A DNA stretch of 24,639 nucleotides from a virus. Its lineage: Duplodnaviria > Caudoviricetes. The DNA lies in IMG/VR virus record IMGVR_UViG_3300028326_000159, positions 1-24,639 of that record; one strand, given 5' to 3'. Under the pieces are notes generated by a model. The model did no database searches and was not told the DNA's origin. It saw only the letters and a program-made list of their open reading frames with translations. This document shows, in pieces, positions 10,261-14,739 of this stretch. A program made the position numbers and the translations under genes. Positions within the stretch are counted from its first letter, which is position 1, and each line of letters opens with the position of its first letter.

Positions 10261-10565
10261 TCTTTCTTTCCTCCATCCTTTCCAAGAAGCGAGATGAAGT
10301 ATTTGTCCATCTTCTTTTCCTGCTCCTCGGACTCTCCGTTTATCTCATGAGTTCGAAGTGCCCTGAATATGACCCTGTCATTCTCCAGAGCCATTACCAG
10401 GCCTTCCTGAACCGTATCAAGCCGTTCATTGATTGCCACAAGTGTCTTGGCGGCATCGTCCTTTCCATCGGACCTCTTGGCATGGCGGTTCAGAATCCAG
10501 ATTCCAATCCCGCCCGAACTGAACAGGCAGACGAGCAGGGATAGTACAAAGGTTGTAAGGTCCAT
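10257..10565 (-). CDS. Single-TM coiled-coil membrane protein, holin/antiholin-like (102 aa)
   Basis: N-terminal TM followed by a helical soluble domain; coupled by TGATG and ATGA overlaps to both neighbours. Confidence 0.55.
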   Translation of the reverse strand: MDLTTFVLSLLVCLFSSGGIGIWILNRHAKRSDGKDDAAKTLVAINERLDTVQEGLVMALENDRVIFRALRTHEINGESEEQEKKMDKYFISLLGKDGGKKE

Positions 10566-11812
10566 CAGCTGGCCTCCTTGGGAAGGGAAGCCAGAAGCTC
10601 CTCGTAGCCATAGGTCAGCCCGTCACGAAGGACAGAGACCTTATCGGAAGAGCCCACCTGCTCGATGTAGCGCTTTACGATTACATCGCAATATTTCTCA
10701 TCCAGCTCAATGGTGTCGCACGACCTGTCGGTCTGCTCGCAGGCAATGAGCGTGCTGCCTGACCCTCCGAAGGGATCAAGGACAAGAGTGTTGCTCATCG
10801 AGGAGTTCATGATGGGATAGGCAAGAAGGGCTATCGGCTTCATGGTGGGATGGTCGCCATTCTTCTTGGGCTTGTCGAACTCCCAGATCGTGGTTTCCTT
10901 CCGACCGGTGTACCATTGGTGAGTGCCTTTCTTCTTCCATCCGAAGAGCACCGGCTCATGCTGCCACTGGTATGGCGAGCGACCAAGCACCAGCGACTGC
11001 TTCTTCCAGATGCATGTCCCGGACAGATAGAAACCTGCCTCGGAGAATGCCTTGCGGAAGTTCAGCCCCTCGGTATCGGCATGGAACACATAGATGGAGG
11101 CGTCGTCTGCCATGAAGCCTTCCATGTTGGAAAAGGCATCAAGCAGGAACTGATGGAATGCATCATCCTTAAGGTTGTCGTTCTTGATCTTGCCGGCCGA
11201 GCCCTTGTAGTCCACGTTGTATGGCGGGTCGGTCACGACCAGGTTTGCCTTGGTCCCGTTCATCAAAAGCTCGAAGGTTTCCTTCTTCGTGCTGTCCCCG
11301 CAGACCAGACGATGCCTGCCTAAGATCCAGAGGTCGCCTTGCCTTGAGATGCATGGGTTCTTGAGTTCGCCCTCCACATCAAAGTCGTCATCCTTGATCT
11401 TGTCCTTGAGCGAATCCTTGAAGAGGTCATCGATCTCTGCAGGCTCGAAGCCTGTCAGCGACACATCAAAGTCAGCACCCTGAAGGTCGGCTATCAGAAG
11501 GGCAAGCTTGTCCTTGTCCCATTCGCCGCTGATCTTGTTCAGCGCCACGTTCAGCGCCTTCTCATGCTCTTCATCCAATTCGACAACTACGCACTCAAGC
11601 TCGGTCTTGCCCAGATCCTTGAGGACCTTTATCCTCTGGTGTCCACCGACAACCCTGCCGGTAGTTCTGTTCCAAATCACGGGCTCGACATAGCCGAACT
11701 GCTCTACGGATTTCTTAAGCTTCTCGTACTCAGGATCCCCTGGCTTCAAGTCCTTGCGCGGGTTGTATTCGGCTGGAATCAGCTCATCGATTTTCTTCGT
11801 CTCAATAGTCAT
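10565..11812 (-). CDS. ParB-like N-terminal domain fused to a beta-class N6A/N4C DNA methyltransferase (about 415 aa)
   Basis: YNPRK, FGYVEPV, GGHQR (ParB/Srx); TDPPYN, HPTMKP, LDPFGGSGST (catalytic motif before SAM-binding motif); ATGA overlap fixes the start at 11812. Confidence 0.93.
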   Translation of the reverse strand: MTIETKKIDELIPAEYNPRKDLKPGDPEYEKLKKSVEQFGYVEPVIWNRTTGRVVGGHQRIKVLKDLGKTELECVVVELDEEHEKALNVALNKISGEWDKDKLALLIADLQGADFDVSLTGFEPAEIDDLFKDSLKDKIKDDDFDVEGELKNPCISRQGDLWILGRHRLVCGDSTKKETFELLMNGTKANLVVTDPPYNVDYKGSAGKIKNDNLKDDAFHQFLLDAFSNMEGFMADDASIYVFHADTEGLNFRKAFSEAGFYLSGTCIWKKQSLVLGRSPYQWQHEPVLFGWKKKGTHQWYTGRKETTIWEFDKPKKNGDHPTMKPIALLAYPIMNSSMSNTLVLDPFGGSGSTLIACEQTDRSCDTIELDEKYCDVIVKRYIEQVGSSDKVSVLRDGLTYGYEELLASLPKEAS

Positions 11813-12594
11813 CTTACCAACCCCCACTGTGCGAACTTCTCGAAGCCGCCGACATCCATGATGAAAGAGCGGGCTATCTCGACAATCTCCGCATAGGGAA
11901 GACCGTCAATCTCGGTATCCCCGATGGCACATGAAAGTTCGACTGGTTTTCCAGTGACCTGAGCCTTGAGCCATGCATAGATGTTCACCGACACATCGGC
12001 CTTGGACAGATCCTTCCCGTGAAGGCCACCGCCAGTAACCGAGTCAGCCATGTCGCTACCAAGCTTGCGGTTGGTGGCACCTGAATCCACATCAAGGCCT
12101 CCTGTCCAATAGCCCAGGGGATTCACCTCCGCCTTGGGGTAAAGCTCGTGCAACTCTTCGTTCGTGGCATGGCTCTGGCAGATGATCAGGCGCTCGCCAT
12201 CGAGGATGTACTTCCCGTCCGTCGGGAAATGCCTGAACAGGTCCTTTGCTATGTGTGTCATCTCAAGCTGCTCTGCGGTTACAGGCATGCCCTTGAAGAT
12301 GCCGTTGTCACCACAGCGAATCGTGTCCGACTGATTCTCTGCCAGGATGCTGTCCTGGGATACCAGATGGTAGTCGACCTTCATCACGCCAGCAATTCTT
12401 CCCACAACCTCGAGCACAGCTTCGGTCTCGATGCTCACAGAGGATTCCACGATGATATGGCATCTTCCGTGGCCCAGGAGAACCTCAACTGCGATTCTCG
12501 GGTTATCGGTTTTCTTATATGCGAGGTCCACGACGGCACCTGCAATCCTGTCAGCCACCTTGTCCGGGTGGCACGGGTTCACTTTCTCAAACAT
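11809..12594 (-). CDS. metK: Shortened phage S-adenosylmethionine synthetase (261 aa)
   Basis: EKVNPCHPDK, GDNG, DGK, VNPLG..GG...DSGATNRK, GGGLHGKDLSKAD match MetK signatures; GAAGGAG RBS before ATG 12594. Confidence 0.88.
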   Translation of the reverse strand: MFEKVNPCHPDKVADRIAGAVVDLAYKKTDNPRIAVEVLLGHGRCHIIVESSVSIETEAVLEVVGRIAGVMKVDYHLVSQDSILAENQSDTIRCGDNGIFKGMPVTAEQLEMTHIAKDLFRHFPTDGKYILDGERLIICQSHATNEELHELYPKAEVNPLGYWTGGLDVDSGATNRKLGSDMADSVTGGGLHGKDLSKADVSVNIYAWLKAQVTGKPVELSCAIGDTEIDGLPYAEIVEIARSFIMDVGGFEKFAQWGLVR

Positions 12595-14203
12595 TGCTTT
12601 CTCCTTCAGAAGAGCATCGGGCAATCCCGGCAAGCACGAACGCCACATTCGGCAGTGCCACGCCGTTGCCCCACATCTTGTATTCGGCTGCATCGGAGTG
12701 TGGGCTCCCCAGCCATTTGCGTATCGCAGAATCGGACTTGGCCTTTGCAGCCTTTCCTGCTATTCGGCCATGCGTCAGGAACACATCCCGCCAGAAGGCA
12801 ATCTCCTCATCCGATGGGTTCTCATTTCCAAGCCCATCGCACCACCAGTCAGGAAAGCCCTGAAGGCGTGCACACTCCGTGGGAGTGAGACGACGCACTA
12901 TGTACCTGAAAGGAGGCTCCACGGCATTGATCACAGGCGGATCCTTGTATTCGCTGGCAACCAGCGTCGGTGAGAGTTCCTTCTCGGCTTTGGTATGAAA
13001 CGAGTTCTTGCTGGTGCAGTACACAACAGCCATCCCTCCCTGGTTGCAGGAAGGATCCCCGCCATTGGCATCAAGCGTCCTGGTGGTCTCAGCTTCATAG
13101 AATCCGCTTTTGGGATTATCGGACTGCATCGCATGGCTGGCCTTCGAGCAGATGCCGAACACCGCAGGGGCGAAGAGCGTCTGGTCGTTGTTGCATGAGA
13201 GCGTGGCAGAGATGTCATCCTGAATGAGCGCACCCTTGCCTCCGCCTTCCTTTCCGCAGCGTATCTTCAGTGTCTTTGGAGTATCCAGGAGCAGTGGCAC
13301 ATTGTTGCCACCAGTTCCCATACGGCTCGTGAGTGTCTGACACACCGAGCTGTCCTCAATTTTGATCCTGCCATCCGTAGGATGGTTCTCAAGGACTATC
13401 GGCGGATAGTTTGCCTGAGCGCGGAGAGTCGAGGTCAGGCCATCGGTGATGTCCATGCGCTGCCCGCCCTGGTCGTTCAGGCAGATTTCGCCTGAGTCTC
13501 CAATGCCATTTGGAGCACAGCCGGGAGCATCTTGCCGCGTTCTGAAGCACGCCGGAGTATGCCAAGGCATGCCTTCCGGCTCAAACAGTACTTTGCCGGC
13601 ACTCCCGCCTGCAAGATCTGCGACAAGGTAGATGCGTTTCCTTCTCTGGGGCACTCCCCAGTACTGGGCATCCAGCACTCGCCAAGCGAGGGAGAAATCA
13701 TCCTCCACGACAAGTCCGGCTCCTGTCCATTTCGAAGGCTGAGGTACTGGCATATTTTGGTATCGGATGCCGATGACCTCCTCGATGACCGACTTGAAGT
13801 CCGCTCCGCCATTGGAGCTGAATGCCCCTGGGACATTCTCCCATACGATGTATCTTGGATATGCTCCATTGGTCTTCTCCCTCATCTCCCTGACGATTCG
13901 TATTGCCTGATGGAAAAGCGATGATTGCTTTCCCTCCAGCCCGGCTCTCTTGCCGGCAAGCGACATGTCGGTGCAGGGTGAACCGAATGTGATGATGTCG
14001 ACTGGCTCTATCTCAGAGCCCTTTATCTGCGAGATGTCCCCCAGGTGCTTCATGAAAGGAAGCCTCTTGGTCGTCACCCTTATCGGGAACGGCTCTATCT
14101 CGGATGCCCACACAGGGACTATCCCGTTCAGGAGCCCTCCCAGAGGAAAGCCTCCCGAGCCGTCGAAGAGGCTCCCGAGCGTTAAATGATCTGTGTTCTT
14201 CAT
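12587..14203 (-). CDS. DNA (cytosine-5) methyltransferase with a long modular variable region (538 aa)
   Basis: SLFDGSGG (I), GSPC (IV), WENV (VI), PQRRKR (VIII), RRLTPTECARLQGFPD (IX), WGNGV (X). Confidence 0.95.
   Translation of the reverse strand: MKNTDHLTLGSLFDGSGGFPLGGLLNGIVPVWASEIEPFPIRVTTKRLPFMKHLGDISQIKGSEIEPVDIITFGSPCTDMSLAGKRAGLEGKQSSLFHQAIRIVREMREKTNGAYPRYIVWENVPGAFSSNGGADFKSVIEEVIGIRYQNMPVPQPSKWTGAGLVVEDDFSLAWRVLDAQYWGVPQRRKRIYLVADLAGGSAGKVLFEPEGMPWHTPACFRTRQDAPGCAPNGIGDSGEICLNDQGGQRMDITDGLTSTLRAQANYPPIVLENHPTDGRIKIEDSSVCQTLTSRMGTGGNNVPLLLDTPKTLKIRCGKEGGGKGALIQDDISATLSCNNDQTLFAPAVFGICSKASHAMQSDNPKSGFYEAETTRTLDANGGDPSCNQGGMAVVYCTSKNSFHTKAEKELSPTLVASEYKDPPVINAVEPPFRYIVRRLTPTECARLQGFPDWWCDGLGNENPSDEEIAFWRDVFLTHGRIAGKAAKAKSDSAIRKWLGSPHSDAAEYKMWGNGVALPNVAFVLAGIARCSSEGESNV
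13477..13869 (-). CDS. Overprinted +1-frame ORF inside the C5 methyltransferase; candidate beta polypeptide (130 aa)
   Basis: Own RBS GAGGGAG 7 nt before ATG; protein-like C-terminus STLSQILQAGVPAKYCLSRKACLGILRRASERGKMLPAVLQMAL; arrangement like the M.EcoHK31I alpha/beta pair. Confidence 0.7.
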   Translation of the reverse strand: MEHIQDTSYGRMSQGHSAPMAERTSSRSSRRSSASDTKICQYLSLRNGQEPDLSWRMISPSLGECWMPSTGECPREGNASTLSQILQAGVPAKYCLSRKACLGILRRASERGKMLPAVLQMALETQAKSA

Positions 14204-14739
14204 CTGCCCCTCCGTGCAGTCAGCAGGCGTTCCATAAGGTCGTCCTGCGGGTTGGCTCCGCCATAGTTGCCGGAGCAGTTGTCCTTGACTATCTGGAATA
14301 TCTGGTACCAGATCTGATTGGTCTGCTTCATGAAGCTCTGGCTCATCGCCACATAGGGAGAGGCAATAGCAGCCCCCGTTGTCGGATGCTTTGCCAAGAA
14401 TCCATACTCAGAAACACATTCCTCGCATTGGATCCAGCGCGACACGCTCATCGCATACTGCTCGATGAGAGTCTGGCTGACCTGCTTCTCGCAGCCACGT
14501 TCCTTCAGCCATTTCCACGTGTTCCTGAAGACTTCCTCGGCACATAGGTCTTTGCCATTTTTCTGAGTGGCTTTCATGAAGTCTTTTATAGGCGGAACGT
14601 CTATGCCATCAAGCTGAGCAGGCTCCGGAAGGACTACAGCCTCGTCGGCCTTGCCTTCCTGTATCTTTTCAAACAATGGTTTGGGCTTACGGCCTGCTCC
14701 GGGCCGTGCTCCGCCCCGGTTAGTTCCATCCCTGGCCAT
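14200..14739 (-). CDS. terS: Terminase small subunit, P27 family (179 aa)
   Basis: RGGARPGAGRKPK N-terminus, KHPTTG..IASPYV, DDLMERLL; located after HNH and the cos-like gap. Confidence 0.9.
   Translation of the reverse strand: MARDGTNRGGARPGAGRKPKPLFEKIQEGKADEAVVLPEPAQLDGIDVPPIKDFMKATQKNGKDLCAEEVFRNTWKWLKERGCEKQVSQTLIEQYAMSVSRWIQCEECVSEYGFLAKHPTTGAAIASPYVAMSQSFMKQTNQIWYQIFQIVKDNCSGNYGGANPQDDLMERLLTARRGR

Follow-up and report, generated by a model that had tools for sequence, protein, structure and literature searches.

C5 cytosine methyltransferases with two chains read from two frames are treated as rare exceptions, two of which are named in PMC3404938. In M.EcoHK31I (YGGCCR), the entire coding sequence of the beta chain lies within alpha in a different frame; beta carries motif IX, and alpha harbors motifs I–VIII, the TRD, and motif X (PMC2836561 and PMC3404938). 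The enzyme has no activity without beta and is rescued by beta in trans, and starts within the beta ORF rescued this beta as well (PMC2836561). M.AquI represents a two-gene split, in which motifs I–VIII are on one chain and the rest of the variable region together with motifs IX–X is on the other. M.EcoHK31I belongs to a restriction-modification system. The multispecific phage methyltransferases of the SPR/phi3T type carry tandem, exchangeable target-recognition modules between motifs VIII and IX, and Tn5252, EaeI, and SPR are parallel systems.

A nested arrangement is also annotated in Streptococcus phage MM1, where orf13 and orf14 of GenBank record DQ113772 are named “C5 methyltransferase alpha subunit” and “beta subunit”. 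The MM1 beta is nested in the +1 frame, ends just past the segment referred to here as the connector, and has no motif IX, whereas alpha carries both IX and X. The MM1 subunits are known here from their annotation, and we know of no activity test of either. The nested alpha/beta layout is therefore not new.

The locus described here is located in a window of 24,639 nucleotides (the whole stretch of DNA that was analyzed), which is one phage contig of 24.6 kb and includes genes for terminase, portal, Clp protease, capsid, DNA polymerase A, and SNF2 helicase as well as VapE-type genes. The C5 gene lies between the small terminase and a MetK-like gene followed by an N6/N4 methyltransferase. The MetK-like gene (PF00438) and the N6/N4 methyltransferase, which is fused to ParB, occupy window positions 10565-12693, between the small and large terminase genes. 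The closest relatives of alpha are found in prophages of Bacillota. Unlike M.EcoHK31I, the window enzyme is a phage gene with no identified endonuclease partner. The features of the locus are as follows.

12587..14203, minus strand: alpha, a C5 cytosine methyltransferase of 538 aa with motifs I–VIII, a variable array, and motifs IX and X (PF00145, E 9e-41; TIGR00675; M.HhaI fold in the model; motifs)
13477..13869, minus strand: beta ORF of 130 aa with an ATG start, in the +1 frame, nested in alpha codons 112–242 (PHROG 16143, E 2.6e-6; 150 homologues)
13877..13883, minus strand: Shine–Dalgarno-like GAGG/GGAG for beta, with GGAG 7 nt 5′ of the ATG (sequence)
13634..13648, minus strand: core of alpha motif VIII, QRRKR (motif position)
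13579..13629, minus strand: connector, beta aa 81–97 (TLSQIL...KYCLS), on the same bases as the strand ending alpha motif VIII (profiles; in-frame counterparts)
13480..13578, minus strand: beta aa 98–130, two predicted helices (identity across alpha codons 198–241: 0.74 for beta, 0.56 for alpha)
12920..13483, minus strand: variable region of alpha, five TL-containing units from CLNDQ onward, likely target-recognition modules (presence in relatives; low pLDDT)
12659..12895, minus strand: alpha motifs IX (RRLTPTECARLQGF) to X (WGNGV) (motif positions)

All of the PF00145-type features are present in alpha: motifs I, IV (PC), VI (ENV, aa 122), VIII (QxRxR, here QRRKR, aa 186), IX (aa 437), and X (aa 511), as well as the HhaI-type fold. 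The placement of motifs IX and X on the main chain agrees with the original prediction, which was made from the sequence of the window. Modeled alone, alpha consists of an HhaI-type catalytic domain and a variable region predicted with low confidence (mean pLDDT 63). TL units 1–5 of this region are found in 61, 39, 52, 74, and 65 of 74 relatives, respectively. Their presence is patchy, with 12 patterns among these relatives; the units may be exchangeable, and this variation plausibly fits multiple methylation targets. An insertion of ~45 residues with two predicted helices lies between motifs IX and X (window 12730-12850) and is common to close relatives.

Contigs across the C5 gene occur in three wastewater metatranscriptomes from one study; strand, level, and translation cannot be read from such contigs, and DNA is possibly present. 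In wastewater RNA runs, other contigs bypass the whole C5 gene (window 12594-14240) between its flanks, suggesting related phages that lack it.

The beta ORF is contained entirely within the alpha ORF at an offset of 334 nt, i.e., in the +1 frame. Because it spans alpha codons 112–242, it covers alpha from motif VI to past motif VIII, and its TGA stop is inside the CLNDQ of alpha (aa 241–245). The 130-codon frame over motifs VI–VIII, with its own ribosome-binding site (GGAG) and a stop at CLNDQ, is thus as originally described. A TGA in the +1 frame (13884-13882) sits 15 nt upstream of the beta ATG and corresponds to an invariant +1 stop in relatives. An SD-like 4-mer precedes the beta start in 156/156 relatives compared to 313/2,887 other +1 ATGs, and the arginine of the alpha EMR sequence, whose codon forms GAGG, is AGG in 155/155 cases vs 513/3186 (16%) elsewhere.

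The C-terminal part is the best predicted portion of beta. In the model of a natural long-beta protein, confidence is highest for residues 81–130 (a short helix and helices 100–113 and 119–138), and residues 1–76 are mostly of low confidence; the helices have pLDDT values of about 80–96 in this model. Internal Met codons of the window beta lie at positions 12, 20, 57, and 67. A motif-pattern search detected no motif IX in beta, and searches of Pfam and NCBIfam returned no family for it. When PDB sequences were searched with beta or its profile, nothing beyond chance hits and no solved structure emerged, while a protein atlas search with beta returned only unnamed clusters, with a recognition value under threshold.

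Conservation of the +1 frame was assessed in 160 loci chosen by alpha residues 1–241 alone, namely the best 80 of 599 and the best 80 of 560 confirmed matches; one of these (L001) has the same sequence as the window across the query and is thus not independent. The frame is open in 159 of the 160. Past ENV, it extends for 119–136 codons in 157 loci, is cut by the contig end in two, and is stopped in one, and the +2 frame of the same loci closes after 6–85 codons. A complete beta is present in 156 of the 159 open loci (154 with ATG and two with GTG, 129–146 aa); two are cut off and one has no start. Frequent stops among homologs, which would have spoken against the nested gene, are not found. 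Beta stops occur only in L150 from this set, which is a broken copy of the methyltransferase gene, and in L194 from a set picked by beta, and alpha is truncated in both.

When codons were redrawn with the alpha protein fixed, the window +1 frame was open in 2/300 draws (3.5 stops expected), and the mean probability of an open frame was 0.06 per gene for 75 non-redundant relatives. The count of 0 stops in 9,860 codons of these 75 genes is zero by construction, the genes having been chosen with complete beta frames. Among 600 random pairs, identity at four-fold sites of alpha is 0.36 (motifs I–V) and 0.33 (motifs IX–X) outside the overlap but 0.55, 0.64, and 0.82 in its three successive parts, i.e., the reduced synonymous variation by which the original prediction was to be checked. 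In the last third, beta identity (0.74) exceeds that of alpha (0.56). The four-fold-site constraint and the conservation of beta above alpha therefore reveal selection on the beta protein, chiefly on residues 80–127. The nested +1 gene is real and strongly selected.

The C-terminal half of beta holds the pattern L.[DQ]IL...V..KY.LS, a segment that is found after motif VIII in one-chain enzymes. The in-frame segment that the original prediction had named for Bacillus phage enzymes is present in four phages: Bacillus phage Eldridge, Clostridium phage c-st, Staphylococcus phage CUB-EPI_14, and Bacteroides phage BT528P2 all carry it in frame. In these cases, L..IL...V..KY.[LI] is followed by a predicted helix, some 20–70 residues past motif VIII. 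A similar segment is at the same place after motif VIII in E. coli Dcm, and the E. coli/Shigella Dcm structures (PDB 3lx6, 3me5) share the L..IL...V..KY.L segment and helix. In contrast to the window, the one-chain enzymes have the segment in frame on one polypeptide, and their +1 frame is closed. Profile comparisons of beta give a probability of 91 (E 1e-6) with the BT528P2 segment, 32 with Eldridge, and 3 (E 0.013) with Dcm, the latter two being weak alone. A long-beta profile also places the connector on the post-VIII segment of Dcm, below threshold. Judging from Dcm and from the HhaI and HaeIII sequences, the in-frame connector may be the ancestral state.

To locate the connector, two small profiles (one in-frame-only and one from beta, cut-off 12 bits) were applied to the 446 of 506 loci that can be anchored on motifs IV–VI–VIII. 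The connector is in the +1 frame only in 320 loci, in the main frame only in 108, in neither in 18, and in both in 0. The +1 frame is open in 318/320 of the former and stopped in 106/108 one-chain genes. These counts overstate independence: the set consists of related loci, some of them duplicates, and beta was the basis for choosing 76 of the 320. On the 160 alpha-picked loci, the in-frame-only profile yields a median of 17.6 bits for the +1 frame and −2.3 bits for the main frame, consistent with the earlier claim that the main frame lacks the segment; the window connector scores 3.3 bits, the lowest of its group. The connector is not forced by alpha, since the +1 frame of one-chain genes does not spell it. 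The 18 loci with neither are mostly Staphylococcus-phage-type genes, in which alpha ends after motif VIII and a separate downstream gene starts with the connector and runs to motifs IX–X (4/4 examined). A fifth locus examined from this group, L485, is a frameshifted nested gene.

In relatives, the array and motifs IX–X are found on either chain, which is expected if both chains belong to one enzyme. Among the best 120 longer beta homologues, 93 have beta at the start and, according to motif patterns, IX and X at the end; of the remainder, one has IX–X and an extra VIII-like match, three have IX only, and 23 have neither. Motif IV was found in none of the 120. In 80 loci fetched with one long-beta protein, three have no beta, 61 have the window layout, 14 are long-beta, and two are neither. 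In the 14 long-beta loci, of 77 with beta, alpha ends after motif VIII at 35, 59, 61, 63, 82, or 155 residues past QxRxR (several values recur), and the array, IX, and X are on beta. In a quick tree, which has long branches and does not root the family or the order of events, nine long-beta rows need nine changes, at least five of them forced by well-supported branches. Some long-beta forms could be assembly errors; one 573-aa form is found in >20 clusters, and one long-beta case is on a finished plasmid.

Additional layouts occur among the loci collected. L448–L463, of the Staphylococcus-phage type, show the two-gene split after motif VIII, and L448 has a 157-aa HNH-like ORF between the halves. 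Mycobacteriophage Omega gp127–gp128 (L162:1634-2938) and L347 have three pieces: alpha with motifs I–VIII, a nested beta, and a downstream IX–X gene. In Faecalibacterium phage FP_Toutatis (L172:1671-3082), the methyltransferase is apparently circularly permuted such that gp14 starts near motif III and gp15 ends with motifs I–II after X; roughly ten consecutive G link alpha to the beta frame, reflecting phase variation or sequencing error. Runs of G7–G9 or C7–C9 lie within the overlap in 34 loci (L259–L332 region; L171) and are absent from the window; their length variants break or fuse frames (L308, L327, PCA1), a possible repeat switch in that sub-lineage. The Acinetobacter plasmid locus L345:1809-2539 encodes another two-frame methyltransferase, with alpha I–VIII and X and a +1 frame of 238 codons whose end resembles motif IX; this is the EcoHK31I division of motifs, and the beta profile does not match it.

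With respect to the known systems, the window locus is, by layout and homology, a member of the MM1-type nested family. The MM1 beta is homologous to that of the window (profile probability 95.7, E 1e-8, 52 columns) but starts further upstream (alpha codon 51), is 141 aa long, and has no last helix pair, and its alpha has 385 aa. Compared by layout, M.EcoHK31I shares with the window a beta ORF that is wholly in another frame within alpha; however, its beta supplies motif IX, which in the window is on alpha. By analogy, the two-chain design may work like that of M.EcoHK31I, but it departs from the defining feature of that type, motif IX on beta. The M.AquI division is shared by the long-beta relatives and the Staphylococcus forms, whereas the window splits off only the connector, encoded over motif VIII. 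A second chain of the M.AquI type, with the distal variable region and IX–X, is absent from the window and present in the 14/77 related loci described above.

Direct searches with the window beta match 159/50,697 phage records, and its profile recovers 4,921 clusters (50% identity) at E up to 0.001. Matches extend to 531 plasmid records, with P1-like dmt accounting for most among the matches listed. In 11 of the 12 phage hits examined, beta matches the +1 frame of an annotated methyltransferase (P1 dmt, Omega gp127, CP-T1, Bcep22, BL94, Bambus, phi1207.3, CRP-822, UF_RH7, MA11, and PCA1), FP_Toutatis being the exception. Eleven more records reached via other betas include seven in the +1 frame and four in frame. 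The P1 dmt +1 ORF over motifs VI–VIII is identical to the window beta at 35/68 residues (51%, E 6e-20). It resembles the window ORF, but the P1 methyltransferase is fused to a Dam domain.

The claim that standard annotation misses beta is accurate for both P1 records, in which the nested ORF is unannotated. It does not extend to 150 called proteins, to PHROG 16143, or to MM1 and P0094, both of which have the two ORFs annotated and together define that PHROG (MM1 orf14, E 5e-82). Novelty and invisibility were therefore overstated, as nested subunits called alpha and beta, arranged in the same layout, are already present in the MM1 record. A literature search, limited for subscription papers, returned no description of the family, its breadth, or the nested ORF in P1 dmt. 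A table listing dmt-B and dmt-A is given in PMC10695390, and the nested ORF is undescribed in the accessible parts of that paper and of PMC12707154, PMC5009743, PMC11855218, and PMC3706429.

On the basis of sequence comparisons, the locus would encode one two-chain DNA cytosine methyltransferase, with beta as a structural subunit supplying the connector and two helices in trans; we assign this reading a probability of about 0.76. The principal counterpoint is that alpha looks complete, with all ten motif regions, and that its catalytic domain models well without beta. Together with selection data that reveal a protein and not its role, this would suit a real alpha-binding protein that is a dispensable modulator of stability, level, or inhibition rather than a required part of the fold. 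Such a role is unlikely, given that the connector never appears in both frames, is missing from both only with a separate or broken gene in the cases examined, and is carried by a beta that is fused to the IX–X half in many relatives; the beta of M.EcoHK31I is, moreover, essential (PMC2836561). That beta has its own function, unrelated to the methyltransferase, is very improbable. Fusions to other proteins occur in a few long homologues (integrase-like P0121 and polymerase-like P0130), but these look like isolated assembly or frameshift events, the beta-type match is in or over a C5 methyltransferase gene in 23/23 annotated records opened, and beta stops accompany alpha truncation.

The original prediction had also raised a translational switch, and a related proposal is that ribosomes or slipped repeats change frame in the overlap, turning the enzyme on or off. 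The G or C runs of 7–9 or more bases in 34 loci, whose length variants fuse alpha with the beta frame or disrupt it (FP_Toutatis, PCA1, L308, L327), lend themselves to this idea, which is nevertheless improbable: the variants may be sequencing errors, an alpha-to-beta fusion would have no motif VIII, and a start codon near the beta stop is absent in 68/156 loci, with the remainder sharing no common frame. The switch is unsupported in the window, as there is no conserved start at the beta stop, no slippery run in the overlap, and an independent beta start with a conserved SD sequence behind the invariant +1 stop. It is scarcely credible that the open frame is a by-product of alpha conservation, codon bias, or an RNA or DNA element. 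The N-terminal half of beta is rich in Ser, and alpha codons dictate the invariant residues within it; however, the resampled genes seldom stay open, conservation tracks the codon positions of beta at sites that vary in alpha, the +1 frame of one-chain genes is interrupted by stops, and an Rfam scan of the window gave no match.

For the two-chain enzyme, it is hypothesized that beta is made by internal initiation on the alpha mRNA, such that one mRNA has two starts. The first 75 or so residues of beta would be a loose by-product of overlapping motifs VI–VII, while residues 80–130 would adopt a fold and be packed against the catalytic domain on one side and, on the other, the half containing motif IX and the recognition region, occupying the place of the connector in one-chain enzymes. 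Alpha alone would then be inactive or weak. With both chains part of one enzyme, the array and motifs IX–X could hang on either. The assembled enzyme may methylate phage DNA and protect it from host restriction, an established role of orphan phage methyltransferases (PMC8637289).

It is about an even chance that the orphan C5 methyltransferases of phages include a large class, with P1 Dmt among its members, that is obligately two-chain, with the segment re-created by overprinting motif VIII codons and with the array and IX–X flipping between chains without loss of function. If the two-chain reading is correct, the design would be common among the phages that infect Bacillota, Pseudomonadota, and Actinomycetota, and the classic phage P1 would have an unannotated subunit. 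The contribution of beta would be redefined as the connector and not motif IX. Recoded or codon-optimized copies of such genes would be expected to lose beta, and an assay could then record them as inactive. The family would also offer a clean and testable example in which one segment of an enzyme is encoded atop another.
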